64,000 nucleotides of DNA, from the NCBI GenBank assembly GCA_947087745.1, contig CAMUDX010000002.1, positions 17,151 through 81,150 of the forward strand, read 5' to 3'. The position numbers were made by a program, and so were the translations under genes. The notes under the pieces are model-generated. The model was given only the letters and a program-made list of their open reading frames with translations, was not told the origin of the DNA and ran no database searches. Each line of letters opens with the position of its first letter. Within the stretch, counting starts at the first letter, position 1. This DNA is from an uncultured Clostridium sp. (lineage in GTDB: Bacteria > Bacillota > Clostridia > TANB77 > CAG-508). This document shows positions 29,520-59,589 of the stretch, piece by piece.

Positions 29520-30410
29520 TTATTGTTTATTTAATTTTTTATAAGCTACTGTTAATATCTCCTTATACTTTCCTTTAATAACTTCTTTATAAAATTCTTT
29601 TCTTATATTTGAAATTATATTAATTTCATCTATCAACTTAAAAATTTCATTCATATTAATTCTATCATACATTCTAATTAAAGCATTATTACAATCTTCA
29701 TTTTTCAAACTTGTAATAAATTCAAAGTATTTTATTTTTGCACCATCATCTCTAATTGCAGATGATGTATTTTTTATACAATCTTGCATTTTTGAGTTAT
29801 TTTCTAAACATTCTTGCATTTTTTCATCTGTGTATACTGAAAATAAGCAAGAGCCACAATCATAAATTGGTGCAAATGTTAATTTTTCATCTTTAATATT
29901 CTTTAAAAATCCCCAATTCCCATTGTGCCTATCTTCATTTCCTATTAAGCAATCAATTATAAACATATTCCAAAATTTTTCTTTTAATTTATCTAAATCT
30001 ATATTGTAGATTCCTGTTTGTACTATATGAAATATGTCTTTTAATTCTCTTTTGAAAGGATTTGGCTCTATACTAGCATTTTCAAATTTTTCAAATTCAA
30101 CTAATTTAGTATCACAATCTGTAAAATCTTCACATCCACAAACAATTCTTTCTTTTCCATCTTTATTGTAAATACCAAGTTCTACTTTTTGTGTTTCAAA
30201 TCCACATAATTCAAATACTTTAGTACCTATATATTCAGAATATACATTATTTATATATGATATTTCTATCTTTGTTGATCTATTAGGATCTGGAAATTTA
30301 ACTAAATATTTTTTGTTATTTAATATCATTGTCTTTTTCTTTTCACTACCAGTATATTCTGGTGCTATTTCTAAAGCTTTTGAAAAATCTAATAATTGCA
30401 TGTTTCCCAC
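29520..30410 (-). CDS. HipA-like kinase-domain protein (toxin-like)
   Basis: IGNEDRHNGNWGFL matches the HipA/CtkA catalytic-loop motif (D-x-H-x-x-N). 296 aa, shorter than canonical HipA. Confidence 0.55.
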   Translation of the reverse strand: MGNMQLLDFSKALEIAPEYTGSEKKKTMILNNKKYLVKFPDPNRSTKIEISYINNVYSEYIGTKVFELCGFETQKVELGIYNKDGKERIVCGCEDFTDCDTKLVEFEKFENASIEPNPFKRELKDIFHIVQTGIYNIDLDKLKEKFWNMFIIDCLIGNEDRHNGNWGFLKNIKDEKLTFAPIYDCGSCLFSVYTDEKMQECLENNSKMQDCIKNTSSAIRDDGAKIKYFEFITSLKNEDCNNALIRMYDRINMNEIFKLIDEINIISNIRKEFYKEVIKGKYKEILTVAYKKLNKQ

Positions 30411-39567: not shown

Positions 39568-40758
39568 TTATGCGTTCTCTTTTAATTCTTTATACCCTTG
39601 CATTATATTGTCTATTTCCATATTGTTTATTGGCTCTGATACAAATGTATTCAAATTTCTTCCCATTAGATTATATGCTGTTTTCATATATTCATCACTA
39701 ACATTATCACTTGTAATTATATTGAATATTGGCACATTATCTTTTAAACTTTTTTTTGATTTCCTCATTATTTCCATACTGTCCATATTGTCTAAATTCA
39801 TTTTTGCAAAAACCATTTCTGGCTTTGATTCTATAATTTTGTTATATGTTTCTTTTCCGTCTGCTGCTGTGTCTACTAATTCAACATAGTCTAAACCTTT
39901 TATTGTATCTGCTATTTTATTTCTTATTTCTTCGTTATTATGGGCAATTAGAATCTTTATCTTTTTCATTCTATTCTCCTCTAATTCATACATAAATTCT
40001 ACTGGATTTTGGTATAGTGCATTTCCCTTTTTTACATCTACACCATGTTCCGTTTTTATTATATCTCCATTTGCTATTAGCAAAGTATATTTATCTTCCA
40101 TGTCCTTTTCTTGTCTAAAGTCTGTTTCTCCTATATTTCCAAAATTTCTAAATACATTTTTAGTTTGCTCAAATTCTGTGTCTGTTATTGCAAATTCGTC
40201 TTTATTTTTCTCTGCTGTTTCTCGAAGTGGCATAAATTTAAAGAACTTCCACTTGCTAATATTATAATTGTTTAGGAACTCTCCTAGCTGCTCCATTTCA
40301 TTTATATTTTTCTTGCTAACTACTGTATTTATATTTACTTTAAGATTTTTGTCTTTAACATAGTCTAGTATAACTTTAACCTCTTCAAAATGATTTCTAC
40401 CTCTTCCTAGTTCTTCATTTGTATCATCATTTATTGTATCTAATGACAATGTCAAAGAATCTAAATAATCTAAAATCTCTCGCATATTTTCATTTTGTGC
40501 TAGTACCATTCCGTTTGTTATCAATTTATTCTTTATTCCATTTTCTTTTGATATTTTTAATAGTTCTTTTAAGTTTGGATATAGTAGTGCTTCTCCCCCT
40601 GTCCAAGTAATGTTGTTTACTCCATCTTTAATCAAATTATTTAATATCTCTTTATTTTCTTCATAAGTAAGATCGTTAATACCTAAAAATCTGTGGCAAT
40701 ATTTACAATTTTGATTACATTTTGTTGTAATATTCCAACAAACTCTCTTTTTTTGCAT
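39568..40758 (-). CDS. radical SAM enzyme fused to a C-terminal (pseudo-)receiver domain
   Basis: N-terminal CNQNCKYC (CxxxCxxC) with GGEALL. The C-terminal ~120 aa show a REC-like pattern (KIKILIAHNNEEI...MVFAKMNL...IITSDN) in which the phospho-acceptor Asp appears replaced. Confidence 0.65.
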   Translation of the reverse strand: MQKKRVCWNITTKCNQNCKYCHRFLGINDLTYEENKEILNNLIKDGVNNITWTGGEALLYPNLKELLKISKENGIKNKLITNGMVLAQNENMREILDYLDSLTLSLDTINDDTNEELGRGRNHFEEVKVILDYVKDKNLKVNINTVVSKKNINEMEQLGEFLNNYNISKWKFFKFMPLRETAEKNKDEFAITDTEFEQTKNVFRNFGNIGETDFRQEKDMEDKYTLLIANGDIIKTEHGVDVKKGNALYQNPVEFMYELEENRMKKIKILIAHNNEEIRNKIADTIKGLDYVELVDTAADGKETYNKIIESKPEMVFAKMNLDNMDSMEIMRKSKKSLKDNVPIFNIITSDNVSDEYMKTAYNLMGRNLNTFVSEPINNMEIDNIMQGYKELKENA

Positions 40759-43000: not shown

Positions 43001-43007
43001 TTTTTAT

Positions 43008-43116
43008 CGCTTACTTAGGGCTAAGCTACTCCCATTTTTTATCTTCACTTAGGGCTTGAATACTCCCATTTTTTATTGTCAACTTTTGGCTTGACTACTC
43101 CCATTTGAAAATATTT
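43008..43116 (-). ncRNA. ToxI-like antitoxin RNA: three tandem ~36-nt repeats upstream of the ToxN-family gene
   Basis: Direct repeats ttacttagggctaagctactcccattttttatc / ttcacttagggcttgaatactcccattttttattgtc / aacttttggcttgactactcccatttgaaaatattt, with no interspersed spacers. Confidence 0.65.
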
Positions 43117-43227: not shown

Positions 43228-44742
43228 TTATCTGTCTATATCATCCATAGAACTACTTTTATCAATTTGATGTAATTGTTCTAATTGTTTTTCTGTAATA
43301 TTTATTACTTTACCACAACAAGGTTTAAAATCTTTATTTCCATAAACGAGCCAAATAATATTTTCTCTTTTTAGATCTTCCTTTGGCATAGTTCCAGGAC
43401 AAGGATAACCATCAGTAAAAACAATTTTGTTTATTTCTCTTTTTTTAGTAAATGATCTAACTGCTAAATCCCAATCTTCTGTCCATGCTGAATGTCCTCT
43501 AGCTCCTCTAGGTATAGTAAAATTATCTATGTCTTTTACATTTTTTATATCTACAAGTCCCCAAAATTGCTCATTAAAGCATCCTACTCTTAGTTTTGAT
43601 TGTTCTAATAATGGTTTTAGTTGCCTTAGAAATGATTTTACTAATTCTAAATCTACTGAGCCAGAAACATCAATCATAACTTCTGTTTCAGCTTCATCTT
43701 CAATATCATTTTCTTCTAATCTATATGCATAATTATTTTCTGCAATAGAACGCCTTTGACTCCAAATTGTTTCTGTTTTTTCTACTTCTCTTCGTAATAA
43801 AAGTTTCCAATCAATTTCTTCTTTACTTTTTCCTATATCCCCTAATTCTATTGTTCCTTTATCGGTACTTCGTATATCTTTTTCAGTCTTTTCGCGTCTA
43901 GATTTGAATTTTTCTCGTTTTTCTTTTCTATTATCTTCAAATTCTCCTTTTTCATCAAAATCTATATCTGTATGTTCTTCTCCAGTTTGCTCTTGTTCTT
44001 GTCCCTGTTCTTGTTTTTGCGAATTTTCATCTTGCCTTTGTCCTTTCTTTTGAGAATTTTGCTGCTCTTTAAATGCTTCTTCCCATAAACTATGGTCATC
44101 TCCTTGACTTTTACTTTTATCTGAATTTTGATTTTCAGTTTGCTCCGCATTTTCATTATTACTATCTTGTTCTTGATTTTGCTCATTGCCTTGTTTATTA
44201 TCTTGTTCATCGCTCTGTCCACTTCCTTGCTGATTATCTTGCTCTTGTTCTTGTCCATCTCCTTGTTCTTGGTCTTGGTTTTGATTTTGATTATTCTTTT
44301 GCTCTTGTTCTTTCTTTTCTTTTTCTTGCAATAATTTTTGATAAAATTCTTCTGCTGAATAATCTAGTGCTTCTGGCATGTTTACATATCCTTCTTTAAT
44401 TGTAAATCCATCTCTTTCTAAATTTGCATTTATAATAGCATCAGTTGCTATATTCCAAAGTTCTGGATCTCTTTTTACTCCACTTTTATCCTTTAATCTA
44501 TACATGTGCATAAATTTTATATGCATTATTTCATGTGCTATTGTAAATAATCTATCATTCTCACTTAAACTTGCAAAATAGTTAGGATCAACATATATAT
44601 TTTTTCCATCAGTTGCTGCTGTATGATATTTCAAGTTGTCTTTAAATTCAATATTAGCTACTGCTATTTCACTACCAAATCTAGGATATTTTGCTAGCAT
44701 TTTCCTTTTTGCATCATAAATCAAATCTGTATTAGCACTCAT
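43228..44742 (-). CDS. DUF2201-type protein: N-terminal putative metallopeptidase (HExxH) domain, acidic Q/E/K-rich linker, C-terminal VWA-like domain
   Basis: TIAHEIMHIKFMH (HExxH) in the N domain; a long low-complexity QEQEQ/KEKREK linker; a C-terminal VWA-like region (MIDVSGSVD). This is the usual partner of MoxR/AAA_5 ATPases. Confidence 0.7.
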   Translation of the reverse strand: MSANTDLIYDAKRKMLAKYPRFGSEIAVANIEFKDNLKYHTAATDGKNIYVDPNYFASLSENDRLFTIAHEIMHIKFMHMYRLKDKSGVKRDPELWNIATDAIINANLERDGFTIKEGYVNMPEALDYSAEEFYQKLLQEKEKKEQEQKNNQNQNQDQEQGDGQEQEQDNQQGSGQSDEQDNKQGNEQNQEQDSNNENAEQTENQNSDKSKSQGDDHSLWEEAFKEQQNSQKKGQRQDENSQKQEQGQEQEQTGEEHTDIDFDEKGEFEDNRKEKREKFKSRREKTEKDIRSTDKGTIELGDIGKSKEEIDWKLLLRREVEKTETIWSQRRSIAENNYAYRLEENDIEDEAETEVMIDVSGSVDLELVKSFLRQLKPLLEQSKLRVGCFNEQFWGLVDIKNVKDIDNFTIPRGARGHSAWTEDWDLAVRSFTKKREINKIVFTDGYPCPGTMPKEDLKRENIIWLVYGNKDFKPCCGKVINITEKQLEQLHQIDKSSSMDDIDR

Positions 44743-44792: not shown

Positions 44793-47018
44793 TTATTCTC
44801 TTTCATGTTCTTCATTCATAACTTCTTTAGAAACTCTTGTTAAATACGAACTATACATTTGTCCTATATCTGTATATGCTGCTATTCCATCTTTTGCATA
44901 TTCTTCTGTTTCTTTTCCTGTATGTAATGCTAAAGACATTTCTTGCAGTTCACTTATTTTCTCCATCTTTCTTTCATCATTTCCAGCCCAATATATATCA
45001 TATATTGATAAATATTCTGGATCACAATGTTTTCTTATGAATTCTCTACAACTTTCTACTTGTGTTTCATCTGCTGTTATCAATGCTGTCATATATGCAA
45101 ATCTTTCGCTTATATCTCTTGGTAAGTCTGCTTGTGTATATCCTTCTCCCATTCCTTTTGTTACTTCTTCTGGAGTCAATGTTGGAAGGTTATAAAAATC
45201 AAAAAATTCTGCTGACCATTCTTCTCTAAGTTTTGAGCTTATTGACCTTTGGATTATATCTTCTACATCTTTTCCTTCATATTTTCCTTGTTCCAAATTT
45301 CTTTCAAAATTATATAAGGTATTTGAAATTGATGTCCAACCACGAGGATCGTTTGTTCTTCCTTTACATCCATTTCTATCTAAATGTTCTTCTCCTACAT
45401 CTGGCTCTTCGTAGAAATATCCTATGTCTTGTATATCTTCGCTTTTTCCAGAATTGTTGTATTTTGATAACATATATCCTATTACTGATGGGTGTATTTT
45501 TTGTGGAATTGCATATTCTGTTATCCATTCTCCTACTTTTGGCTCCATATCTAGGATATGGTCAAATCTTTTTTCTAGTGGCTCTGCTAAATCTTCTGCT
45601 ACACTTGAATATTTCTTTTGGTTTCCTGTTGCTACAACTACTACATTGTCTGGTAATTTTAGTCCTTTTCCTATCTCTACCATTCTATTTAATACTAATG
45701 TATATACTAAACTTTGAACTGCTGGTTTTACATTTAAAAGCTCATCTAACATTATTACAACTTTTTTATCGCTTTCTTTTGACCTTTCATATACTGTATC
45801 TGCTACATCATATATATTTTGTATATTTTCTTCAACTAATTTTCTTTCTTCTTCTGTTGCTTCTTGCATAATAGCTGTTTTTGCAAAGTCTGGTGGTATG
45901 CTTTGTCCTGTTTGTAAATTTACTGATCCTACCACTTTTTCTGGGAACATGTTATTTGTTAATTTCATATAAATTAAGTCTGGATATAATGTTTTTATTC
46001 TTTCTGTTTTTCCTATTCCAGATGGTCCTCTTAATAATACTGACTCTCCTGCTTCAATCCAATTTTGTATTATTTCTGTATCTGTCATTCTGCTTCTATC
46101 AGCAGTTTTTGTTTTGTCTGGATTTAATTTTTGTAATCTAGATTTTCTTGGCTTAAATTCTTCTGTTTCTTCTGTTTGCTCTCCTAATGTTATTGTACCT
46201 CTTGATTGTTCTAAATCTCTTGCCAAATATCTATCCATAAATGTTTTTATATCTGTTTTATCAAAATCTCTTGTATGATAATTACTCTCTTTATTAAATT
46301 GAACTCCTGCAAATATTAGTTTTTCAGTTATCATCATACGAGATTTTTCATCTACAATCCATTTAACTGGAGAAACTTCTATCCATACATTATCTCCATC
46401 TTTATATTGTTCTCCATTTGAAAGTGTAAAGTTACTTCCATCATAATATGAATTAGCTTCAACTCTTACATATCTTTTTCCATTATATTCATATTCTTGA
46501 TGAGTTTGTGGCTCAAATGTTGTATCATATTCAGTGTATCGTGTTGAATCTGTTGTATAACTATTTCTTGTTTTTGAAAGTCTGCCACTTTTATATTCTC
46601 TTTCTAATTTTTCTTGCATCTCTTTTGATACTGCTTTTTGTGGATAATATCCATACTCTACTTCAAGAATACCATCTCTTGCTCTTTTCCCACTCTCTCC
46701 GTTCGTGGGGATATTAGAGATTGATGAGAACGGCAAAGCTGGGCGAGCCCCACCATTGCGAGTGTTAACATTGTAGTAATCGCTATCACCACTATCGTAA
46801 ACCACGCGCGCGTCATTATCTCCGTCATCTGACTTTGTCCAATACCAACCTGTTCTCCCCTCTAAAGAACTATCATTATCTACATGATAATCAGAAACCC
46901 ATCCACCAAGCAATACAGAAAAATCTGTTATGGCTGCCTGTGTTCCTCTTTTTTCTAATATATCTAATTTATCATTACCAAAGCATTGTTCTTCGGTTAA
47001 AAAAGTAAAATTACTCAT
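44793..47018 (-). CDS. DGR target protein 1: N-terminal C-type-lectin/DUF1566-like variable domain (contains VR1) fused to a MoxR/AAA_5-type AAA+ ATPase
   Basis: VR1 (46739-46816) encodes residues ~68-93. The upstream segment (LTEEQ...GRTGWYWTKSDD...ARVV...RNGGARPAL) resembles short CLec/DUF1566 folds. Walker A VLLRGPSGIGKTERI, Walker B VVIMLDELLN and an AAA_5-like sensor region. No signal peptide. Confidence 0.8.
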   Translation of the reverse strand: MSNFTFLTEEQCFGNDKLDILEKRGTQAAITDFSVLLGGWVSDYHVDNDSSLEGRTGWYWTKSDDGDNDARVVYDSGDSDYYNVNTRNGGARPALPFSSISNIPTNGESGKRARDGILEVEYGYYPQKAVSKEMQEKLEREYKSGRLSKTRNSYTTDSTRYTEYDTTFEPQTHQEYEYNGKRYVRVEANSYYDGSNFTLSNGEQYKDGDNVWIEVSPVKWIVDEKSRMMITEKLIFAGVQFNKESNYHTRDFDKTDIKTFMDRYLARDLEQSRGTITLGEQTEETEEFKPRKSRLQKLNPDKTKTADRSRMTDTEIIQNWIEAGESVLLRGPSGIGKTERIKTLYPDLIYMKLTNNMFPEKVVGSVNLQTGQSIPPDFAKTAIMQEATEEERKLVEENIQNIYDVADTVYERSKESDKKVVIMLDELLNVKPAVQSLVYTLVLNRMVEIGKGLKLPDNVVVVATGNQKKYSSVAEDLAEPLEKRFDHILDMEPKVGEWITEYAIPQKIHPSVIGYMLSKYNNSGKSEDIQDIGYFYEEPDVGEEHLDRNGCKGRTNDPRGWTSISNTLYNFERNLEQGKYEGKDVEDIIQRSISSKLREEWSAEFFDFYNLPTLTPEEVTKGMGEGYTQADLPRDISERFAYMTALITADETQVESCREFIRKHCDPEYLSIYDIYWAGNDERKMEKISELQEMSLALHTGKETEEYAKDGIAAYTDIGQMYSSYLTRVSKEVMNEEHERE
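46739..46816 (-). other. DGR variable repeat VR1
   Basis: 78 bp; 70/78 identical to the TR. All 8 mismatches fall at TR positions that are A on the coding (minus) strand. Flanked by GC-rich clamps (gacgcgcgcgtgg ... ggtggggctcgcccag). Confidence 0.9.
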
Positions 47019-47057
47019 ATACTACTCCCTTATATTTCTTATGCTAATTACTGTAGC

Positions 47058-47423
47058 TTAAAATGCAATAACACAGAAATTATATAGCTCCTTTGAAATG
47101 TTTTTTAATCCTTCTCTATCTTTAACAGTTAAAACTACAATCATATCTTTTGGTAATTTATATCCATAAAATTCTCTATCTTTAACTATTTGATAATATT
47201 TATTTTGTGTACTTTCATTCAATTTGTCTATTTCAGATATAATAAAATAATCAAGTTCTTCTTTATTAGAGATTTTCTCTTTAAAAATTGTAAGCAATTC
47301 ACTATCATTAGAATCAGCATTCACAATAATTTTTGAATCTAATTCTTTACAATCTTCATTTTGTATTACAACACAGGTAGCAAGGCATCCTTTTTGTAAT
47401 TCTATCAATTCTTTATTAATCAT
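47058..47423 (-). CDS. hypothetical protein (121 aa) between the two DGR target genes
   Basis: ORF only; no motif recognised. Confidence 0.35.
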   Translation of the reverse strand: MINKELIELQKGCLATCVVIQNEDCKELDSKIIVNADSNDSELLTIFKEKISNKEELDYFIISEIDKLNESTQNKYYQIVKDREFYGYKLPKDMIVVLTVKDREGLKNISKELYNFCVIAF

Positions 47424-47424
47424 A

Positions 47425-47901
47425 TTAAATTTTATCCCCTTTCGTAATACTAAAAAAACTCAATATTTTATTAAGAAACTTTTTTAATATATTTTCTTTT
47501 TTATATTCTACTATATTTTTTTCTATCACATTTTCATTTTGAATTATTTTATTTTCTTTTTTGTTTTTAAAAATATCATTTACATTATATGTTTCTTTTA
47601 TTTTTTCTTTTTTCATATTGTTTTCATGTATTATATTTTTATATTTTTCATGTTCTTCTTTATTACACCACCATGTAATATATATAAAGCCTAAAAGTTC
47701 TTTAGTTTGTTTTCTTAAATTAAAGCCATTGATTGGCTGTTCATGATTAAATTTAGATTTATAGCTTTTACTTGAAATATCAGTTAAAAACTTTATAAAA
47801 CTTTGTGGTATTCTTGCAACATCTTCTTTATTTGTATGATTTAGTATGTCTAATACTTCAACTGCTGCTTCACTATATTCAGCTTCTCTCATTTTCTTCA
47901 C
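47425..47901 (-). CDS. hypothetical protein (158 aa) between the two DGR target genes
   Basis: ORF only; its start overlaps the end of target gene 2 by 23 nt. Confidence 0.35.
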   Translation of the reverse strand: MKKMREAEYSEAAVEVLDILNHTNKEDVARIPQSFIKFLTDISSKSYKSKFNHEQPINGFNLRKQTKELLGFIYITWWCNKEEHEKYKNIIHENNMKKEKIKETYNVNDIFKNKKENKIIQNENVIEKNIVEYKKENILKKFLNKILSFFSITKGDKI

Positions 47902-50110
47902 TCCTAACTTCTTCTTTAGAATCTCTTGTTAAATACGAACTATACATTTGTCCTATATCTGTATATGCTGCTATTCCATCTTTTGCATATTCTTCTGTTT
48001 CTTTTCCTGTATGTAATGCTAAAGACATTTCTTGCAGTTCACTTATTTTCTCCATCTTTCTTTCATCATTTCCAGCCCAATATATATCATATATTGATAA
48101 ATATTCTGGATCACAATGTTTTCTTATGAATTCTCTACAACTTTCTACTTGTGTTTCATCTGCTGTTATCAATGCTGTCATATATGCAAATCTTTCGCTT
48201 ATATCTCTTGGTAAGTCTGCTTGTGTATATCCTTCTCCCATTCCTTTTGTTACTTCTTCTGGAGTCAATGTTGGAAGGTTATAAAAATCAAAAAATTCTG
48301 CTGACCATTCTTCTCTAAGTTTTGAGCTTATTGACCTTTGGATTATATCTTCTACATCTTTTCCTTCATATTTTCCTTGTTCCAAATTTCTTTCAAAATT
48401 ATATAAGGTATTTGAAATTGATGTCCAACCACGAGGATCGTTTGTTCTTCCTTTACATCCATTTCTATCTAAATGTTCTTCTCCTACATCTGGCTCTTCG
48501 TAGAAATATCCTATGTCTTGTATATCTTCGCTTTTTCCAGAATTGTTGTATTTTGATAACATATATCCTATTACTGATGGGTGTATTTTTTGTGGAATTG
48601 CATATTCTGTTATCCATTCTCCTACTTTTGGCTCCATATCTAGGATATGGTCAAATCTTTTTTCTAGTGGCTCTGCTAAATCTTCTGCTACACTTGAATA
48701 TTTCTTTTGGTTTCCTGTTGCTACAACTACTACATTGTCTGGTAATTTTAGTCCTTTTCCTATCTCTACCATTCTATTTAATACTAATGTATATACTAAA
48801 CTTTGAACTGCTGGTTTTACATTTAAAAGCTCATCTAACATTATTACAACTTTTTTATCGCTTTCTTTTGACCTTTCATATACTGTATCTGCTACATCAT
48901 ATATATTTTGTATATTTTCTTCAACTAATTTTCTTTCTTCTTCTGTTGCTTCTTGCATAATAGCTGTTTTTGCAAAGTCTGGTGGTATGCTTTGTCCTGT
49001 TTGTAAATTTACTGATCCTACCACTTTTTCTGGGAACATGTTATTTGTTAATTTCATATAAATTAAGTCTGGATATAATGTTTTTATTCTTTCTGTTTTT
49101 CCTATTCCAGATGGTCCTCTTAATAATACTGACTCTCCTGCTTCAATCCAATTTTGTATTATTTCTGTATCTGTCATTCTGCTTCTATCAGCAGTTTTTG
49201 TTTTGTCTGGATTTAATTTTTGTAATCTAGATTTTCTTGGCTTAAATTCTTCTGTTTCTTCTGTTTGTTCTCCTAAAGTTATTGTACCTCTTGACTGTTC
49301 TAAATCTCTTGACAAGTATCTATCCATAAATGTTTTTATATCTGTTTTATCAAAGTCTTTGGTATGGTAATCTCTAGTATGATTAAATTGTACTCCAGAG
49401 AATATCAATTTATCTGTTAGCATGACTTTTTCTCTTTCATCAACTAACCATTTTACAGGAGAAACTTCTACCCATACATTATCTCCATCTCTGTATTGTT
49501 CTCCATTTGAAAGTGTAAATCTATTTCCTCCAAAATCTGAATTAGCTTCAACTCTTACATATCTTTTACCATTATATTCATATTCTTCATGTTGTTTTGC
49601 TAAAAATTTTTCGCCATAAGCATCATATTTTCTTGAATCTGTTGTATAACTATTTCTTGTTTTGGATATACTACCACTTCTATATGCTCTTTCTAGTCTT
49701 TCTTGCATGTCTTTTGATGCTGCTTTTTGTGGGTAATATCCATACTCTACTTCAAGAATACCATCTCTTGCTCTTTTCCCACTCTCTCCGTTCGTGGGGA
49801 TATTAGAGATTGATGAGAACGGCAAAGCTGGGCGAGCCCCACCATCGCGAGTGAGAACATGGGAGCAATGCCTATGACCATTATCGTTAACCACGCGCGC
49901 GTCATTATCTCCATCATCTGATTTTGTCCAATAATATCCTGTTCTTCCCTCCAAAGAACTATCATTATCTATATGATTGTTGTCAGAAACATAAGCACCT
50001 AAAAGAATAGAGAAATCTGTTATTGCTGCTTTTGTTCCTCTCTTCTCTAATATATCTAATTTATCACTTCCAAAATATTGTTCTTCGGTTAAAAAAGTAA
50101 AATTACTCAT
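47879..50110 (-). CDS. DGR target protein 2 (paralog of 44793..47018; contains VR2)
   Basis: Same architecture as target 1. VR2 encodes ...DARVVNDNGHRHCSHVLTRDGGARP..., versus TR-encoded DARVVNDNGNRNYNNVNKRNGGARP. Confidence 0.8.
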   Translation of the reverse strand: MSNFTFLTEEQYFGSDKLDILEKRGTKAAITDFSILLGAYVSDNNHIDNDSSLEGRTGYYWTKSDDGDNDARVVNDNGHRHCSHVLTRDGGARPALPFSSISNIPTNGESGKRARDGILEVEYGYYPQKAASKDMQERLERAYRSGSISKTRNSYTTDSRKYDAYGEKFLAKQHEEYEYNGKRYVRVEANSDFGGNRFTLSNGEQYRDGDNVWVEVSPVKWLVDEREKVMLTDKLIFSGVQFNHTRDYHTKDFDKTDIKTFMDRYLSRDLEQSRGTITLGEQTEETEEFKPRKSRLQKLNPDKTKTADRSRMTDTEIIQNWIEAGESVLLRGPSGIGKTERIKTLYPDLIYMKLTNNMFPEKVVGSVNLQTGQSIPPDFAKTAIMQEATEEERKLVEENIQNIYDVADTVYERSKESDKKVVIMLDELLNVKPAVQSLVYTLVLNRMVEIGKGLKLPDNVVVVATGNQKKYSSVAEDLAEPLEKRFDHILDMEPKVGEWITEYAIPQKIHPSVIGYMLSKYNNSGKSEDIQDIGYFYEEPDVGEEHLDRNGCKGRTNDPRGWTSISNTLYNFERNLEQGKYEGKDVEDIIQRSISSKLREEWSAEFFDFYNLPTLTPEEVTKGMGEGYTQADLPRDISERFAYMTALITADETQVESCREFIRKHCDPEYLSIYDIYWAGNDERKMEKISELQEMSLALHTGKETEEYAKDGIAAYTDIGQMYSSYLTRDSKEEVRSEENERS
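47905..49320. repeat. ~1.4-kb segment 100% identical to 44819-46230 (tandem duplication / gene conversion between the two DGR target genes); approximate extent
   Basis: Identical antisense ORF pairs (44837..45040 = 47926..48129; 45233..45871 = 48322..48960; 45881..46141 = 48970..49230) and identical C-terminal ~480 aa of the two target proteins. The N-terminal ~260 aa are only ~75% identical. Confidence 0.85.
49828..49905 (-). other. DGR variable repeat VR2
   Basis: 78 bp; 12 mismatches to the TR, all at TR coding-strand adenines; same GC-rich flanks as VR1. Confidence 0.9.
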
Positions 50111-50230: not shown

Positions 50231-51349
50231 TTACAGTTTTTGTGGAAAAGTTTCATTTTTTAATTTTTTACTTTCTTTTGTGTCTTTGATATGGTTATAA
50301 AATGCATTTTTTCTAATATAAACATATTCCTCATCAACAATATTTTTTTCTCTTAATTTATGCAATGTTTTTAAATGTTTTTTTAATCTTTGTTTAGATG
50401 AAACTCGTAATTTTCTTGTTATACTGCCATCTTCATTTAAGATATGCCTATATCCTAAAAAATCTATTCCATTTTTTACAATTCCTATTTGTGTTTTTTG
50501 ATTTAGTGATAGCTTTAACTCATGTTCACATTTCTCCTTTATTTTTGAAAGTGAATATTGTAAATAACTTTTATCTCTATGAACCAAAATCATGTCGTCC
50601 ATATAACGAATATACCCTTTTACTCTTAAATCTTCTTTAACATATCTGTCGATTACATTTAAATATAATAGTGCAAACCATTGACTAGATTGATTTCCAA
50701 GTGGTAAGCCAACATCTGCATTATTAGGCTGTTCTTTTACTAATTTTTCTATCATCCACATCTCATCACTTGAAAAATTAATCTTTTTTAGTAAATTTAA
50801 TAGCACTTCGTGATCTATGCTTTGAAAATACTTTCTTATATCACATTTTAGAAAAAATATTTTATTGTTTTGTTCTTTTCTATATTCATTTCTTAAAAAA
50901 TTTTCTAATCGTTTTATAGCAAATGTTGTTCCTTTTTCTTTTCTGCATGCTGCATTATCATATATTAGTTTTCTATCAATTTTATCTCTTAGTGCCACAT
51001 CACAAAAACACTTTATAACAACTCTATCTCTAAAAGGTAATGCTTCTATAACTCTTTCTTTTGGCTCATATATTAAAAATTCTTTATACTTTCCTAATTT
51101 ATATTTCTTTGACATTATATCGTTCATAAGATTACTTATATTACTTGATAAATTAGCTTCAAATCGTATCACTTCTCCTTTATGTTGTTTAGATTTTCTA
51201 CAACCTTTATATGCATCATATAAATTTTCAAATGTAAAAATTTCTTTTAATTCCATATTGTATTTCCTCCTAAAAAAAGAACGCTCCTTAAAACTTGCAA
51301 AAAATAGATTATCTATTCGTTGCTCGTGTAAGCGTTCATATTCTTCCAC
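50231..51349 (-). CDS. DGR reverse transcriptase
   Basis: RT motifs: LKCDIRKYFQSIDH (motif 2), GLPLGNQSSQWFALLYLNVIDRYV (the DGR-specific [LI]GxxxSQ motif 4), RYMDDMILV (YxDD). 372 aa with no maturase or endonuclease domains. Confidence 0.85.
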   Translation of the reverse strand: MEEYERLHEQRIDNLFFASFKERSFFRRKYNMELKEIFTFENLYDAYKGCRKSKQHKGEVIRFEANLSSNISNLMNDIMSKKYKLGKYKEFLIYEPKERVIEALPFRDRVVIKCFCDVALRDKIDRKLIYDNAACRKEKGTTFAIKRLENFLRNEYRKEQNNKIFFLKCDIRKYFQSIDHEVLLNLLKKINFSSDEMWMIEKLVKEQPNNADVGLPLGNQSSQWFALLYLNVIDRYVKEDLRVKGYIRYMDDMILVHRDKSYLQYSLSKIKEKCEHELKLSLNQKTQIGIVKNGIDFLGYRHILNEDGSITRKLRVSSKQRLKKHLKTLHKLREKNIVDEEYVYIRKNAFYNHIKDTKESKKLKNETFPQKL

Positions 51350-51480
51350 CGCACTATTTCTTTAGCGGTTAGAAAAGAGAAAAATTCCTTCACTTTAAAA
51401 TACTGATATATTTTCCTTAAAATATATTTCTCTGATTCTTTATTTTAAATCCACTTTTATAGGATTTATCAAAAGTGAAT

Positions 51481-51558
51481 CTGGGCGAGCCCCACCATTG
51501 CGTTTGTTAACATTGTTGTAATTTCTATTACCATTATCGTTAACCACGCGCGCGTCAT
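51481..51558 (-). other. DGR template repeat (TR)
   Basis: 78-bp non-coding segment between avd and the RT, homologous to VR1 and VR2. On the minus strand it is rich in AAY codons (aac gat aat ggt aat aga aat tac aac aat gtt aac aaa cgc aat). Confidence 0.9.
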
Positions 51559-51629: not shown

Positions 51630-52211
51630 CTAACTTCGTTTTTTCCATCTTTCATCATCACTCTTTTTCCATGCTACTGTTAAATTAATTGCTTCTGATA
51701 ATTGAATAGAAATTTGTTTGTATTGTTTCTTTAATATGCATCCAGAATTTTCTGCCACCATAGAAACATATCCTAGTAATTTTAATTTTACTATTGCCTC
51801 TTTTTGTAATTCTTCTCTTTTTGTTTTCTTTTCTACTGCATCCATTCTAATAAAATTAGCTTCTAATAAGCACTCTAATGTATCAAGACAATAGTTCTGC
51901 ATTCTATTTACAAATACTCCTCTAAATTTTTTTGGAGATTTTTCTGTAACTGCAATTATATAAGTTGCTAGTTTCTTTACTACTGTTATAACCATTAAAT
52001 CATTTGCATTAAATGGCAACTTATTCACTTGTTCTAATTCATTGTCATTTTCTACGCTTTCTTCAATTTCTTTTTTATTAAATCTTTTATTCTCAGCAGT
52101 AGCAATAGCTTGCTTCACTGCTACTTTATCCTCAATACTGTTTTCAGCTCCGTTAAAATCTTCTAATTTTTTAGGTATTTTCAAATTACTATCTCTACTA
52201 ACTTGTAACAT
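51630..52211 (-). CDS. Avd-like accessory variability determinant (four-helix-bundle, IVS-protein family), with possible N-terminal extension
   Basis: The C-terminal ~120 aa (from MVITVVKKLATYIIAVTEKSPKKFRGVFVNRMQ...LLGYVSMVAENSG...LSEAINLTVAWKK) fit the basic four-helix Avd/23S-rRNA-IVS pattern (..kfPK.er..l...a.....K...L...W.K). It sits immediately upstream of the TR. The first ~70 aa of the ORF may not be translated. Confidence 0.55.
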   Translation of the reverse strand: MLQVSRDSNLKIPKKLEDFNGAENSIEDKVAVKQAIATAENKRFNKKEIEESVENDNELEQVNKLPFNANDLMVITVVKKLATYIIAVTEKSPKKFRGVFVNRMQNYCLDTLECLLEANFIRMDAVEKKTKREELQKEAIVKLKLLGYVSMVAENSGCILKKQYKQISIQLSEAINLTVAWKKSDDERWKKRS

Positions 52212-52279: not shown

Positions 52280-53260
52280 TTAAAGTTCTCCTTTGATTTT
52301 TGTTATCTTATTTAAAAGCTTATTGTACTCCTCTCTACTAACACCTGTTCCTTCTAAAGACTTCTGATACTTTTTTTCTTCTTTAGATAGATATTCTTCT
52401 GGATCATCATAATATAATAATAATTCTAACATCAAACACTCTATTTCACATTCTGTATGCTTTTTATTTTTTATTGTAATACCTAATTTTTTTAATATCC
52501 TTTTCTCCTTAAAACTTAACATTTTTCTTATATTTAAAATCTCTAAATTATGATATTTTTCATCCCATTCTAAATATTTTTTATTTTCTAATTCTCTTTT
52601 TATTCTTTTTAATTCTGTATATATTTCTTCATAATCATTAACTGGTTTCTTTATATATCCTGCTACTTCTAGTCCACCATTTATAACATCACTTTTGTTA
52701 TCTGCAGATATAACTAAAAATGCAATATCTTTATTTTTGGCAAAATAACTCTTTATAATATCTAAACCTGTATATCTATGATTACGCATAAGGTCTGTTA
52801 TTACAATTTCTGGCTTTAATTCTTCGATCATTTTTATTTCATCTTCATCACTATTAGCAATTCCTAATATTTCTATATCTTCATATTTTTCTAAAAATTC
52901 TTTTATAAATTTGCATATATGAATATTGTCATCTGCAATTATGATTTTAATTTTTCTACTCAATTTAATCTTTCCTTCCATTATTTCATTATTTATTTTC
53001 ACTATTGTTTCTTTAGCAGCAATAGTAAATATCTCCTTTAAATTTGTCTTTAAATAATTATTGGTATCCTCTACATATCCAAATATTTCTTCATATAATT
53101 TCTTTTTTGTTTCAGTATCAAAGTTATTATTTTCTTCAATATTCTGTAATATTTGATTTATTCTCTTTTGTTTATTACAGTTTAAAATTTTTAATAATAA
53201 TTCATCAAAATCTTGTTCTTCACAAATCTCATCTATTAAATCAAATTTTATCTCTTTCAT
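52280..53260 (-). CDS. receiver (REC) domain protein with uncharacterised N- and C-terminal regions
   Basis: Central KIIIADDNIHICKFIKEF...EIVITDLMRNHRYTGLDIIKSY...AFLVISADNKSD...GYIKKP has the CheY-like acidic pocket, phospho-acceptor Asp, T/S and K. Confidence 0.6.
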   Translation of the reverse strand: MKEIKFDLIDEICEEQDFDELLLKILNCNKQKRINQILQNIEENNNFDTETKKKLYEEIFGYVEDTNNYLKTNLKEIFTIAAKETIVKINNEIMEGKIKLSRKIKIIIADDNIHICKFIKEFLEKYEDIEILGIANSDEDEIKMIEELKPEIVITDLMRNHRYTGLDIIKSYFAKNKDIAFLVISADNKSDVINGGLEVAGYIKKPVNDYEEIYTELKRIKRELENKKYLEWDEKYHNLEILNIRKMLSFKEKRILKKLGITIKNKKHTECEIECLMLELLLYYDDPEEYLSKEEKKYQKSLEGTGVSREEYNKLLNKITKIKGEL

Positions 53261-56508: not shown

Positions 56509-59500
56509 CTAATTGTTTATTTCTCTTGCAATAACTACTAATCTTCCGTTTTTATTGCTATATTCACAAGTAGAAAGTGTAATAAATTTATCATGATATT
56601 TTGGTTTTATATTTGTTTCATAAAATGATAATTCTTTACACTTATTTACAAATGTATTGAACTCATCTTCATTACTAAAATTCACAAAATTATAATATTT
56701 AAAAGTATTTTTGCTATATACCACTGTTTTGAATACTGCAAAAATTTCGTATTTTTTCATTTCTTCCAATGTTGTAAAGTCTATAATCTTATGATTTTCG
56801 TAAAATTCTTTTGATTTATAATTTTCTAATGCACCAAATACTTTTTTATGATTCATGTGATGCCCATATATTACAAGATTATCACTTGTGTTTATATTGC
56901 ATTCTTCTGACATATAAGGTGTTCCATAAGATGAATACTTTTTATAAAAATCTCTATGCAAGTAATAGTTAGGATTACTTTTTGTCTGCATTATTGGATA
57001 GTTTATTGTTGTATCATTTATTTTTAACCAACCTACAATATCACTATTGATAGCATATAAGTTATCTATATTTATTACTGTTTCTTCTTGTTTTTTATCT
57101 TCTGGATTTGTTTGTTCTACTATTTCAATTAGTTCTTCAAAATTGTTTTCTTGTTCTTTATTTTGTTTCAATTCTTTATAAATACAATAACTGCTAATAA
57201 GAATTGAACTTATTAGCAGCATAATACAAAATACATATAATATTTTTTTCACTATGCGACACCCTCTCCGTGGTTTGGTTGTCATTAGTTTGTATAACTC
57301 TGTATTTCGTGGGAATCTATTTACAAATGGTATTAGTGAACTTCCTATTTTTATTAGCCCTTCTCCTGCATTTACATTTGTAATATAGCTCATTTGTAAG
57401 TCTGATATATTTAATAATTTTGCAAGCTCTACTCTATCTGTACTAGCTTGATTTAACATGATAATAAGCTCACTATTTGCTAGCATTGTTCTTGCTGTAT
57501 GACTTTGTAACATATCTTCCACATTTTGCGTTATTCCCGTACAATATGCTCCATATTTACGAACTCTTTTCCATAAAGTGAATAAGAAGTTTGCTGAATA
57601 TTCATATTGGAATAACAAGTAAATTTCATCAATAAAAATAAAGGTATTTCTACCTTTTGACCTATTCATTGTTATTCTATTCAAAATCGAATCTAGCACT
57701 ACTAACATTCCAATAGGTAGTAGTTGCTTTCCTAAATCTAAAATGTCATAACACACTAAACGATTATGTGTATCAACATTTGTAGGTTTTGCAAAAGTGT
57801 TCAAACTACCATTTACAAACAATTCAATAGCAAGTGCTATTTCTTTTGCTTCTGGCTCTTGCTGTTTTAATAGTTCTTCATAGAAATCTTGTAGTGTAGG
57901 TGGTGTTCCTTGATAATTTCCTTGTTGGTAATATCTATATACACTTGCTGTGCATCTGTCTATTATAGATTTTTGTTTTGCACCTAAATTATTACTGCCT
58001 ACTAGTTGTTCGCATAGTGAAAGTATGAACTCTGATTTTAATATGATAGGATTTGCTCCATCTCCATAATCTTTGTTCATGTCCATAGCATTGATATGAT
58101 TTCCACTTGTTGCTGATATTTTTATTACTTCTCCACCTAACGATTTTACAAGTGAACTTGCTTCCCTTTCTGGATCTACAATTATCACATCTGCGTTAGG
58201 ATCTTTTAACATTATAGAAACTATTTCTTCTTTTGCTATGAAACTCTTTCCACTACCACTAACACCTAGAATAAAGCTATTTCCGTTCAATAATTGCTTT
58301 CTATCTGCAATAATCATATTTTTGCTAATAACATTTTGCCCATAGTATATTCCGTTTTCGTGTCGTATCTCTTGTACTCGAAATGGCATAAATACTGCAA
58401 GCGATTCTGTTGTAAGTGTTCTTAAAGTATCAATTTTTCTTACTCCAAAAGGCATAGCTGTATTTAAGCCATCAAGTTGCTGAAATTTTAGCACACCGAA
58501 CTGACATAAATGCTTTCTTGCTATTGTTAGCAATGCCTCTGTGTCATTGTCTAGTTCTTCTTTGCTTTCTGCTGTATGCACCATTGTAAGAACTGATATA
58601 AACATTCTTTGATCACGAGTTATTAAGTCATCTAAAAACTCTTTGCTTTGTTCTCTTTGTTGCTCCATGTCATAAGGAATAATGGCTGAAAAGTTATTAT
58701 TGGCATTTTGTCGCCTTTGCCAATTAGTTATGTTTGTTTCTATTCCTAATCTTCTATTCTCTGCTTCTCTAACTGCCTCATCCATAGGTATTGGTATAAC
58801 ATCTATACTCATCATCATATTTTTATTTATATCTGTTAATTCTGCTACCATACTGTCCTTAATATAGCTTGCATACTCTTTCAAGAATATAACTCTGCCA
58901 TATCTATTTCCAATTTTGAAATAATCGCTTTCAAATTCCATAGAATCTGGACAAATAAAATCCTTAAAGCTATGTCCTTTTCTCATATTAGTTATCATAT
59001 CAAAATTGAATGATGTTTCTTCTCCTACTCTATAAAAGTCATGGAATATTCTTAATCTTTCTACTGCATCTAATTCAATACATATAGAGCCTAATTCTTT
59101 AAAGTGGTTTATTAAGTCCGTTCCTACTCTTGCAAAATAATTCTTTGCTTCTTCTATACTTTTTTTATCAACTGATATTGTTATAAACTTCTCTTGTATT
59201 ATACCATTTGAGGCTGTTGCCTTATCTAACAACATTTTATTATATTCTTTTCTAAATTTATCTAACTCATCATTTTCCATAGGTAATAGCATAGTTTCTT
59301 CAAAGTCAATTTTATTTAATCTTCTATTGATTATAGTTATTTTAGTAGTAGCACCTGTATCAAATGAATTTAATAACTCTGAATATTCTAAAAACATTGC
59401 TTCTTTATCATCTCTACTTGCTACTGCATAATTTATATCACTAAATTTATAACATTTTGAATACTTATTTTTTCCAATAAAAAAGATGCCATCTTCCCAT

Positions 59501-59589
59501 ATTGCCTTAATAGGAATGGCATCTTGCACACTTCGTGGTATGACAAACTTTTCTTTGTCTTGTTTGAATAATTTATTTAATGTTTTCAA
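56509..59589 (-). CDS. VirB4-family conjugative transfer ATPase (Tn916 Orf16/TcpF-like), in-frame with a C-terminal TM segment and a sortase B-like domain
   Basis: Walker A GVSGSGKS, Walker B FIFIDEIY. After ~780 aa comes a TM stretch, then a sortase signature (YPIMQ...VIYGHHM...TLSTCEY...R). An internal GTG with a GGAGAGGG RBS at ~57237 could start a separate srtB-like gene. Confidence 0.7.
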   Translation of the reverse strand: MKTLNKLFKQDKEKFVIPRSVQDAIPIKAIWEDGIFFIGKNKYSKCYKFSDINYAVASRDDKEAMFLEYSELLNSFDTGATTKITIINRRLNKIDFEETMLLPMENDELDKFRKEYNKMLLDKATASNGIIQEKFITISVDKKSIEEAKNYFARVGTDLINHFKELGSICIELDAVERLRIFHDFYRVGEETSFNFDMITNMRKGHSFKDFICPDSMEFESDYFKIGNRYGRVIFLKEYASYIKDSMVAELTDINKNMMMSIDVIPIPMDEAVREAENRRLGIETNITNWQRRQNANNNFSAIIPYDMEQQREQSKEFLDDLITRDQRMFISVLTMVHTAESKEELDNDTEALLTIARKHLCQFGVLKFQQLDGLNTAMPFGVRKIDTLRTLTTESLAVFMPFRVQEIRHENGIYYGQNVISKNMIIADRKQLLNGNSFILGVSGSGKSFIAKEEIVSIMLKDPNADVIIVDPEREASSLVKSLGGEVIKISATSGNHINAMDMNKDYGDGANPIILKSEFILSLCEQLVGSNNLGAKQKSIIDRCTASVYRYYQQGNYQGTPPTLQDFYEELLKQQEPEAKEIALAIELFVNGSLNTFAKPTNVDTHNRLVCYDILDLGKQLLPIGMLVVLDSILNRITMNRSKGRNTFIFIDEIYLLFQYEYSANFLFTLWKRVRKYGAYCTGITQNVEDMLQSHTARTMLANSELIIMLNQASTDRVELAKLLNISDLQMSYITNVNAGEGLIKIGSSLIPFVNRFPRNTELYKLMTTKPRRGCRIVKKILYVFCIMLLISSILISSYCIYKELKQNKEQENNFEELIEIVEQTNPEDKKQEETVINIDNLYAINSDIVGWLKINDTTINYPIMQTKSNPNYYLHRDFYKKYSSYGTPYMSEECNINTSDNLVIYGHHMNHKKVFGALENYKSKEFYENHKIIDFTTLEEMKKYEIFAVFKTVVYSKNTFKYYNFVNFSNEDEFNTFVNKCKELSFYETNIKPKYHDKFITLSTCEYSNKNGRLVVIAREINN

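Follow-up and report, generated by a model that had tools for sequence, protein, structure and literature searches.

A DGR cassette that diversifies the lectin-like N-terminal module of MoxR-like AAA+ ATPases paired with a zincin/VWA protein in gut Clostridia and Bacilli

INTRODUCTION

The gut microbiome is very rich in DGRs (PMC11601372). Phage tail proteins and the pili of Bacteroides aside, however, little is understood of their cellular targets, and the targeting of soluble machines has so far been reported chiefly from multicellular cyanobacteria and sulfur bacteria. DGR-diversified cytoplasmic conflict systems of the MoxR-vWA and STAND types have been published (PMC7159879, PMC10907252). 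Among the closest are the VMAP ternary MoxR-vWA systems described from cyanobacteria and gammaproteobacteria (Kaur et al. 2020, PMC7159879; Dore et al. 2024, PMC10907252), in which the targets are often duplicated and are proposed to act as a hypervariable antigen sensor. In these systems, the variable FGS/C-lectin domain is C-terminal on the vWA (or STAND) protein and a trypsin or caspase is carried by the separate VMAP protein.

Three further sets of proteins resemble parts of the locus described here. N-terminal DUF6273 C-lectin domains that contain the variable repeat (VR) are known as tentaclins (PMC10743442), and a DUF6273 C-lectin DGR target also appears in bioRxiv 10.1101/2024.10.15.618418. 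In these gut-phage targets (Baykov et al. 2023, PMC10743442; bioRxiv 10.1101/2024.10.15.618418; PMC11792537), the VR forms a beta-hairpin, two targets per cassette are common and the targets outlast loss of the DGR. The lectin domain is followed by Ig/Fn3 domains (1–4 Ig-like, C-terminal consensus), and the proteins are virion-associated receptor binders. Secondly, phages including the jumbo phages encode a MoxR-like ATPase (PHROG 1297) and a metallopeptidase-vWA protein (PHROG 1314; N4 gp25-like), the latter running from an HExxH domain at the N-terminus to a VWA domain at the C-terminus (Iyer et al. 2021, PMC7824862). This pair is proposed to function in virion assembly and processing, not in defence (PMC7824862). 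Thirdly, DGR targets of the AAA/Midasin type occur in CPR bacteria (PMC5758913), where they are listed without further characterisation, together with three DGRs that have an N-terminal VR (Wu et al. 2018, PMC5758913).

The present locus has two target genes like many VMAP systems and tentaclin cassettes, an N-terminal module that seems to resemble the DUF6273 C-lectin domain of the tentaclins, with its VR likewise on a predicted beta-hairpin, and an AAA_5-type ATPase with an HExxH/VWA partner like the phage pair. Compared by description only, it has an AAA-type ATPase motif in a DGR target, as in the CPR bacteria, and an N-terminal VR, as in the three DGRs, a position that calls for an IMH within coding sequence. 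The arrangement nevertheless differs from that of the VMAP systems. The recognition module, which is N-terminal and apparently of the DUF6273 type, sits directly on the ATPase, the zincin peptidase is fused to the vWA protein, no VMAP was detected and the third component is instead a 121-aa AAA-fragment-like protein; the hosts are gut Clostridia and Bacilli rather than multicellular bacteria. Whereas Ig/Fn3 domains come next in tentaclins, here an AAA+ ATPase does, and no copy was found on a viral contig. The lectin N-module is missing from the phage ATPases, none of which is targeted by a DGR, and identities to the phage proteins are 22–26% for the ATPase and 32–42% for the peptidase. The fusion of a lectin module to an AAA_5 ATPase with a DUF2201 partner was not found in the literature searched.

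RESULTS

A DGR with two ATPase targets

The window is a stretch of 64,000 nucleotides from an uncultured Clostridium sp. (GCA_947087745.1, contig CAMUDX010000002.1). An earlier note on this DNA had described a DGR here, and all of the elements that it listed are present on the minus strand. In order along that strand, the features are:

52280..53260, minus strand: receiver-domain protein, 326 aa, directly upstream of avd (Pfam Response_reg 3.3e-9)
51630..52211, minus strand: bAvd, the DGR accessory variability determinant (Pfam bAvd 9e-5 and NCBIfam DivGenRetAVD 1.2e-6, both below their curated cut-offs; PHROG 3206 'Avd protein of DGR' 8.6e-18)
51478..51558, minus strand: template repeat (TR), 81 nt, intergenic between avd and the reverse transcriptase (RT) gene; member of a three-copy repeat family
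50231..51349, minus strand: DGR RT, 372 aa (Pfam RVT_1 2.8e-16; PHROG 1423 2.9e-95; PADLOC RT (generic) 1.4e-34)
47879..50110, minus strand: target T2, 743 aa, with a DUF6273-like lectin module, linker, AAA_5 ATPase and helical C-terminal region (Pfam AAA_5 27.6 bits)
49825..49905, minus strand: variable repeat VR2, T2 residues ~69–95 (13/13 TR mismatches at TR adenines)
47425..47901, minus strand: small ORF s158, 158 aa, no known domain, kept in closer relatives
47058..47423, minus strand: small ORF s121, 121 aa, conserved third component, possibly a degenerate AAA fragment
44793..47018, minus strand: target T1, 741 aa, with lectin module 1–275, linker 276–310, AAA_5 core ~310–500 and helical C-terminal region (Pfam AAA_5 27.8 bits)
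46736..46816, minus strand: variable repeat VR1, T1 residues 68–94 (9/9 TR mismatches at TR adenines)
43228..44742, minus strand: zincin/VWA partner (DUF2201), 504 aa (DUF2201_N 3.1e-27)

The RT gene starts 129 nt downstream of the TR. The two small ORFs between the targets, s158 and s121, are part of the system.

Adenine-confined variation is ongoing in natural populations

When the TR was compared with the two VRs, all 22 mismatches fell at TR adenines. The repeats share a 16-nt GC-rich 3′ end, GGTGGGGCTCGCCCAG, which is present in exactly three copies in the window (the TR and both VRs; none expected by chance) and which we take from its sequence to be IMH-like. There was no third VR in the window. 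Read in the frame of the targets, the TR is AAY-rich and has 12 codons with adenines at variable positions, most of them AAY. In an alignment of 122 close homologs, exactly these 12 positions had entropies of 1.9–3.4 bits, with peaks at T1 residues 74–76, 78–83, 85, 86 and 88. Near-isogenic protein pairs had no differences outside the VR and 2–7 inside it. The DGR is therefore active and diversification is ongoing in natural populations. An RT adjoining the TR, an adenine-confined TR/VR pair, an Avd, a GC-rich 3′ end and diversification, by which a DGR is recognized, were all found. The 12 randomized codons, which map to a predicted beta-hairpin and the loop after it, allow ~10^14 possible peptides.

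A decaying or inactive DGR was also considered. It was rejected for the lineage of the window on the evidence of the entropy peaks and the near-isogenic pairs; it does apply to the L001 lineage, where RT, Avd and TR have been lost and the VR is frozen, and to locus L164, where the RT is interrupted by three tyrosine recombinases.

The VR lies in a predicted lectin-like module at the N-terminus

As the earlier note had proposed, the VR encodes part of an N-terminal module (residues 68–94 of T1) that appears lectin-like. This module had been put at ~130 aa; it is in fact ~275 aa long, comprising a lectin-like part, a beta-rich part and a closing helix, which places the start of the AAA core near residue 310. 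An AF2 model of T1 residues 1–290, made with a more diverse alignment, had a pLDDT of 91.1 and a pTM of 0.89. In this model, VR1 forms a beta-hairpin (strands 69–73 and 79–83) and the loop that follows it. The structural matches of the module are C-type-lectin-like domains; Foldseek searches of PDB and BFVD gave no match with an E-value of 0.001 or better. The model suggests a lectin-like fold with the VR on a beta-hairpin.

The family relationship of the module appears to be to Pfam DUF6273 and not, as first assigned, to DUF1566. Matches to DUF6273 were obtained with 9 of 67 family members (best 5e-5), and also with P0149 (26.3 bits, above the cut-off) and P0125; T1 itself had no match to this profile even at an E-value of 10. 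The matches are confined to the profile's C-terminal half and are arranged as if the Pfam model had been circularly permuted. Pfam searches detected no Ig or Fn3 domain after the module, the AAA_5 ATPase coming next. Proteins of ~280 aa were considered as possible free-standing lectin modules. This was rejected for the one case examined, P0325, which is a split gene with an overlapping 466-aa AAA_5 ORF downstream of it.

The expectation that the targets lack a signal peptide held: the four proteins have no signal peptide, membrane segment or sortase motif, and the maximum 19-residue hydropathy was 1.27. The machine is presumably cytoplasmic. The surprise first attached to cytoplasmic and N-terminally diversified DGR targets was overstated, given the published precedents (PMC7159879, PMC10907252, PMC10743442, PMC5758913).

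The two targets share one MoxR-like motor

The assignment of both targets to the AAA_5 ATPases was confirmed, with scores of 27.8 bits (T1) and 27.6 bits (T2) against a cut-off of 22. Residues 304–648 of T1 also matched the PHROG 1297 ATPase (1.1e-32). GPSGIGKT (Walker A), the Walker B residues DE425-426, sensor-1 N466 and the arginine finger R484 are near-invariant across the family alignment, with one substitution each at T338, D425 and N466. Walker A and B, sensor 1, the arginine finger, an AAA_5 score above the gathering threshold and a linked VWA co-factor together support a classification of these proteins as MoxR-like AAA+ ATPases, a clade that is also characterized by a helix-2 insert, a pre-sensor-1 hairpin and a hexameric ring. 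A profile search against PDB sequences gave P-loop-level matches only, with no closer solved relative, and an AF2 prediction of full-length T1 with 62 close homologs was poor (pLDDT 41.5).

T1 and T2 are 100% identical over gene nt 780–2190, whereas their N-modules are only 77–92% identical. The likeness to NLR sensors drawn in the earlier note is an analogy only, as no STAND domain (NACHT, NB-ARC) reached its Pfam threshold: AAA_16 (18.9 bits) and ATPase_2 (19.5 bits) fell short of cut-offs near 33, and AAA_5 was the best Pfam match.

A zincin/VWA partner and two small proteins complete the machine

The partner had been read as a zincin-VWA protein, and this was borne out (DUF2201_N 3.1e-27; PHROG 1314 2.4e-44). 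It consists of a zincin-type HExxH domain (DUF2201_N), a ~160-aa low-complexity linker rich in Q, E, N and D, and a VWA-like domain with a MIDAS motif. In a profile search against PDB sequences, DUF2201_N showed marginal similarity to the minimal zincin MJ1213. The VWA part scores weakly in the window copy (15.7 bits); relatives score up to 35.7 bits, passing the Pfam threshold. Among 74 homologs, the glutamate and second histidine of HEIMH (residue 70) were never substituted and the first histidine was replaced once, by threonine; the MIDAS motif DVSGS (residue 358) showed no substitution, leaving DxSxS intact. Strict conservation is thus seen in these alignments for the motifs of the ATPase, for HExxH and for MIDAS.

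A homolog of s121 lies between the ATPase and DUF2201 genes in 48 of 57 assessable loci. Comparison of s121 with T1 residues 422–477 by hhalign (E 1.2e-4, probability 55%) and a weak match to PHROG 1297 suggest that it is possibly a degenerate AAA fragment, running from Walker B to sensor 1 without the P-loop. Homologs of s158 were found by tblastn in 27 of 78 loci, always directly after the target gene; s158 had no match in Pfam, NCBIfam, PHROG or PADLOC. Neither protein showed a relationship to VMAP, s121 having a sub-threshold DUF7201 match only and s158 none to any Pfam family.

The core recurs across gut Clostridia and Bacilli

The family has more than 1,300 close homologs, and 196 genomic stretches were confirmed in a one-genome-per-species collection. 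Across gut Clostridia and Bacilli, the core of ATPase, small ORF and DUF2201 recurs in 76 genomes, each representing a species. A DUF2201 homolog is downstream of the ATPase in 53 of 57 assessable loci, and a DGR/RT is directly upstream in 28 of 60, the other 32 having no adjacent DGR. Adenine-biased TR/VR pairs were found in 20 species loci, down to 50% identity, with the VR always ~200 nt into the ATPase gene. The earlier note had staked its reading on these ATPases being associated with DGRs elsewhere; the combination recurs with DGRs in many genomes, and the reading therefore survives on this point.

Its placing of the cassette on a mobile element holds for the window, where the cassette lies between an integrase (35 kb) and the conjugation genes (CHAP, VirB4 and PrgI at 54–60 kb), 2.7 kb from the T4SS genes, and for one close relative with a relaxase upstream of the cassette. 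All 76 other species loci were free of conjugation genes within 10 kb, and an ICE context was rejected as a general feature on this ground. Some copies adjoin serine recombinases and others are found among housekeeping genes (MraZ, RsmH, RNase HII). Neighbours of the conflict type include an adjoining type III toxin-antitoxin system (AbiQ/ToxN), as well as MazF, HipA, recombinases, ParE and PemK. No candidate client gene was conserved beside the cassette in the species loci.

PADLOC 2.0 matched the RT (generic) and the neighbouring AbiQ in the locus. It had no model matching DUF2201, s121 or s158, and T1 gave a weak DolB match (2.5e-5) at the AAA level only. A near-identity DNA search of phage and plasmid collections with the 9.3-kb locus returned nothing. 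Homologs of the ATPase and metallopeptidase-VWA pair occur in lytic phages (N4-like and jumbo). The fusion of N-module to ATPase was absent from 2.9 million viral contigs, which contained only ATPase cores at 40% identity or less.

DISCUSSION

The results partly support the earlier interpretation of this locus. Gut Clostridia and Bacilli, too, direct DGR hypermutation at a soluble, signal-less, ATP-driven machine. We propose that the DGR targets are the substrate- or ligand-recognition modules of a four-gene machine directed against a changeable intracellular protein, a proposal that we think could equally prove right or wrong. [quoted passage not shown] A ring of the ATPase might display several variable modules, in the way that the N-domains of other AAA+ proteins recruit substrates, and each module would bind a variable intracellular protein, for which a phage, a plasmid or a rival element is the likeliest source. 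Remodelling powered by ATP and passed on through the VWA domain would then make the captured protein, or an endogenous substrate, accessible to the metallopeptidase, so that the invader is neutralized or a suicide or alarm response is set off. Since the motors of T1 and T2 are identical and their recognition modules differ, the paralogs would provide two specificities. About half of the loci have no adjacent DGR, and hypervariation is therefore not essential to the core machine.

Several observations speak against this proposal: PADLOC has no model for the system, the lytic phages have homologs with a proposed virion role, 32 of the 60 loci are without an adjacent DGR, and the model of the full-length target is poor.

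In a bolder reading, which we consider unlikely, the cassette would be a self-reprogramming targeted protease or unfoldase, with the DGR rewriting the substrate-recruiting N-domain of the AAA+ ring and the tethered VWA-zincin cleaving or dismantling the bound cytoplasmic protein. If this were true, sensor and effector would be joined in a single machine, with a mechanism unlike that of the VMAP and STAND systems, which are of the signalling type, and intracellular degraders could be engineered with the cassette as a template.

It is similarly doubtful that the machine serves the mobile element, in counter-defence or host takeover. On entry into a new cell, the module would then bind proteins of the host, whether for defence or for housekeeping, to be inactivated by the ATPase and metallopeptidase, and the DGR would allow the element to adapt to new hosts. 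The ATPase and DUF2201 homologs in lytic phages, to which abortive infection is of no use, are consistent with this, as are the integrase and conjugation genes that flank the cassette in the window, the relaxase upstream of the cassette in one close relative and the copies beside serine recombinases. However, the 76 other loci have no conjugation genes within 10 kb, some copies sit amid housekeeping genes and none of the 2.9 million viral contigs contains the N-module fusion; moreover, the toxin-antitoxin and Abi genes in the neighbourhood are typical of defence islands.

The classical role of MoxR-VWA pairs, which are known as assembly chaperones, suggests a chaperone or maturation machine that assembles or processes a cellular or element-encoded complex, the lectin module recruiting a variable client such as a polymorphic surface or secretion-system component. 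The proposal that the phage metallopeptidase-vWA fusion processes virion proteins (PMC7824862) points the same way, and so does retention of the core in the 32 DGR-less loci. We nonetheless regard this as improbable: 12 randomized contact residues, with their ~10^14 variants, are hard to square with a fixed client, and no candidate client gene is conserved beside the cassette.

T4SS substrates do not carry Sec signals, which counts in favour of export of the targets without one, as T4SS substrates of the ICE or by lysis; outside, they would serve, as canonical DGR targets do, as variable adhesins or effectors. Although the DUF6273 VR domains of gut phages are read as receptor-binding (PMC10743442) and the window cassette is 2.7 kb from T4SS genes, such export is very hard to credit, because there would be little point in exporting an ATPase of 460 aa whose catalytic motifs are intact and whose partner is ATP-dependent, none of the other loci has T4SS genes near the cassette and the proteins have no signal peptide, membrane segment or sortase motif.

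To return to the proposed recognition machine, the system is compact (four genes and a DGR) and abundant, and the RT-less lineages with a frozen VR provide natural controls. The idea of a hypervariable intracellular sensor is therefore directly testable in a tractable context. If the function that we infer is correct, the cassette adds a new architecture and a new bacterial group to the hypervariable intracellular sensor systems already described.

The receiver-domain gene directly upstream of avd is co-conserved only in loci L006, L007 and L164; its product is a possible regulator and only perhaps a member of the system.

An active DGR diversifies two ATPase genes

The window has a G+C content of ∼27%, with the minus strand carrying most of its genes. 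Between 52.2 and 43.2 kb, this strand reads in the order bAvd, TR, RT, T2, s158, s121, T1 and DUF2201_N/VWA, where T1 and T2 are the two DGR targets and s158 and s121 are small ORFs between them. The RT, Avd and TR assignments are based on Pfam, NCBIfam and PHROG matches, and the variable repeats (VR1 in T1 and VR2 in T2) on their match to the template repeat (TR).

Features of the DGR locus
51630–52211, minus: bAvd
51478–51558, minus: TR, 81 nt
50231–51349, minus: reverse transcriptase (RT)
47879–50110, minus: target T2, 743 aa
49825–49905, minus: VR2, in T2
47425–47901, minus: s158
47058–47423, minus: s121
44793–47018, minus: target T1, 741 aa
46736–46816, minus: VR1, in T1
43228–44742, minus: DUF2201_N/VWA protein, 504 aa
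41888–43106, minus: AbiQ/ToxN-type toxin gene (Pfam ToxN, 2e-44; PADLOC AbiQ, 1.5e-46) with the tandem repeat that precedes it

The DGR of the window is real and active. All mismatches to TR (9 of 9 in VR1, 13 of 13 in VR2) fall at TR adenines, and the GC-rich 3′ end GGTGGGGCTCGCCCAG is confined within the window to TR, VR1 and VR2. In the target frame, the adenine-containing TR codons (mostly AAY) correspond to residues 74–76, 78–83, 85, 86 and 88, and permit a computed ∼2.6 × 10^14 peptides. When T1 and T2 were aligned with 120 homologs at 85–95% identity, the entropy was 1.9–3.4 bits at exactly these 12 positions, with the rest of the 741 residues mostly near-invariant.

Some members of a single 90%-identity cluster show 0 differences outside the VR and differ at 2–7 VR positions. 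In the lineage of the relative L001, from which RT, Avd and TR have been deleted, one VR is common to six of nine proteins despite differences elsewhere. These data are direct evidence, at the population level, for the DGR as the driver of VR variation and for freezing of the VR once the RT is lost.

The L001 locus itself (9826–19155 of a 230-kb contig) is a T2/s158/s121/T1/DUF2201/ToxN/LysR block without Avd, TR and nearly all of the RT. In this lineage (proteins P0024 and P0387–P0393) most cluster members carry the same VR, which therefore appears frozen. At L164 5405–9880, a close relative, three consecutive tyrosine recombinase genes interrupt the RT in an insertion resembling a recombinase-in-trio; the upstream neighbours are a relaxase and a DNA methylase.

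The variable repeat lies in an apparently portable N-terminal module

The VR encodes residues 68–94 of the target, where the earlier note had placed it. The recognition module is likewise N-terminal and VR-bearing, and larger than the ∼130 residues then proposed: residues 1–275 are common as a unit to 2640 clusters in a representative search (617 at E < 1e-30), alone, joined to the same ATPase or joined to other domains. A model of residues 1–290 from a diverse alignment (pLDDT 91.1, pTM 0.89) shows the VR as a β-hairpin (strands 69–73 and 79–83) and the loop that follows it.

The N-terminal 149 residues of T1 gave no Pfam match; DUF6273 was matched by 9 of 67 family members. The literature describes DUF6273 as a C-lectin target domain of DGRs, including the N-terminal VR versions termed 'tentaclins' (PMC10743442, bioRxiv 10.1101/2024.10.15.618418, PMC11792537). 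In the protein P0149, the DUF6273 profile extends from the end of one module into the lectin part of the module after it; the order of the N-module thus resembles a circular permutation of DUF6273, as judged from profile alignment.

P0149 carries two lectin-like modules in tandem, fused to DUF4116 repeats. Fusions to TelA were found in the set P0149, P0356, P0128 and P0151, and P0151 has the module together with two AAA domains. Given these fusions, the module appears to be portable for recognition. P0128, a relative in the ATPase family, has N-terminal WG β-repeats; the lectin-like module was not matched there. In P0325 (139 blocks of the collection), an N-module of 283 aa and an ATPase of 466 aa are separate ORFs with a 17-nt overlap, split exactly at the linker; this variant sits at L080 8001–10236 and L082 6386–11199, and may reflect either a stably split gene or programmed frameshifting.

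A presumably intracellular motor and its partners

The module is followed in the target by a charged linker (∼276–310), the AAA_5 domain (27.8 bits against a Pfam cut-off of 22) and a helical C-terminal region. Walker A, Walker B, the sensor-1 Asn and Arg484 are invariant in the family alignment bar single substitutions at T338, D425 and N466, and the ATPase is predicted to be catalytically intact. The full-length target model was poor, and no solved structural relative of the ATPase was found. The four proteins have neither a hydrophobic N-terminus nor a membrane segment. Hypermutation is aimed at a hairpin and loop in the lectin-like module of an AAA+ ATPase that has no signal peptide or membrane segment.

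The T1 and T2 genes are 100% identical over nt 780–2190 and 77–92% identical in the N-terminal module, where divergence extends outside the VR. We therefore read T1 and T2 as two putative recognition heads on one motor. The pattern suggests either that gene conversion has homogenised the motor or that diversifying selection acts on the whole recognition module.

The DUF2201 protein matches DUF2201_N (3e-27) with a conserved HEIMH motif, and the DxSxS MIDAS motif of its VWA-like domain is without substitution in 67 aligned homologs; for the VWA domain, the window's protein scores below the Pfam threshold, and a relative reaches 35.7 bits. Peptidase and VWA domain are separated by a Q/E/N/D-rich linker of ∼160 aa, encoded by 36-nt and 6-nt periodic repeats (43900–44330), whose length probably differs among relatives. 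The s121 protein has no P-loop. Its weak alignment (hhalign E 1e-4, probability 55%) is to the ATPase segment from Walker B to sensor 1, and a role as a pseudo-subunit that caps or regulates the ring is possible. For s158, no relatives were detectable outside this system.

Recurrence and genomic context

One genome per species was scanned, which gave 196 confirmed stretches; counts refer to the best 76 loci. Their sources are uncultured Clostridia, Bacilli and 'Tenericutes' from the gut of humans, rabbits, mice, sheep, goats and chickens. The hypermutated ATPase is genetically locked to the zincin-VWA protein and the small AAA-like protein: a DUF2201 homolog lies downstream in 53 of 57 assessable loci, and s121 is present in 48 of 57, in most loci between ATPase and DUF2201. 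More than one target paralog occurs in 15 of 76. A DGR RT is directly upstream in 28 of 60, and 20 loci have adenine-biased TR/VR pairs, some in relatives only 50–60% identical and always with the VR ∼200 nt into the ATPase gene. The possibility raised in the earlier note, that these ATPases are never DGR-associated elsewhere, is thus clearly contradicted. In half of the loci, no local DGR accompanies the ATPase/s121/DUF2201 core.

In the window, the cassette is flanked by a tyrosine integrase (35 kb) and the conjugation genes CHAP, VirB4-sortase and PrgI (54–60 kb). It adjoins the AbiQ/ToxN gene, with MazF and HipA genes near; a 35-nt × 3.1 tandem repeat (43001–43106) preceding the toxin gene resembles an array of type III antitoxin RNA. 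At other loci the neighbours are serine recombinases, ParE or PemK, or else housekeeping genes. The conjugation genes are missing within 10 kb at all of the other 76 species loci. The cassette is therefore self-contained in its behaviour, and integrative elements often, but not always, carry it as cargo.

Proposed working and biological role

By analogy with the substrate-recruiting N-domains of other AAA+ proteins, the N-module would recruit a variable intracellular ligand, and ATP hydrolysis and the VWA domain would couple ligand binding to zincin proteolysis or remodelling. Biologically, conflict between genomes is the likeliest setting, because randomising 12 contact residues is only sensible against a changing target, toxin–antitoxin and Abi genes are neighbours, and the closest published analogues, DGR-linked MoxR-vWA and STAND systems, have been proposed as antigen sensors (PMC7159879, PMC10907252).

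Within that setting, the beneficiary may be either the host (defence) or the carrying element (counter-defence). The latter option is kept alive by phage homologs: the ATPase belongs to PHROG 1297 and the DUF2201 protein to PHROG 1314, both phage protein families, the two homologs are adjacent in a jumbo phage, and each occurs also in N4-like and other jumbo phages. In such phages, a MoxR-vWA pair that includes a metallopeptidase at the N-terminus was proposed to act in virion assembly (Iyer et al., PMC7824862). Only distant ATPase cores, and no N-module/ATPase fusion, were recovered among 2.9 million viral contigs. A chaperone role is also possible.

The general idea is already on record, in the cytoplasmic DGR targets of MoxR-vWA systems (PMC7159879, PMC10907252), in N-terminal DUF6273 VRs and in AAA-type targets of CPR bacteria (PMC5758913). 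According to large surveys, a signal peptide or membrane anchor is present in most cellular DGR targets (PMC8144416). No description of the combination of a lectin module/ATPase fusion, DUF2201 zincin-VWA protein and s121 in gut Firmicutes turned up in literature searches that covered the full text of articles.

Other features of the window

The AbiQ/ToxN-type toxin is unusually long (367 aa), with a CYTH/CyaB-like C-terminal half (TIGR00318, 2.9e-8). A 1026-aa conjugation ATPase (56509–59589, minus; TraG P-loop/AAA_10/VirB4-like) has a C-terminal sortase domain, an unusual fusion, and at 39568–40758 (minus) a radical SAM domain is joined to a response-regulator receiver domain. Another receiver-domain protein (52280–53260) is encoded immediately upstream of avd, a position conserved in the relatives L006, L007 and L164. 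An IS91-family transposase (Y2_Tnp) and a HipA_C kinase-like gene (27284–30410) separate a housekeeping block (TsaD, RecG, MutL, FtsK) from the integrase, and this stretch is a possible boundary of the integrated element.
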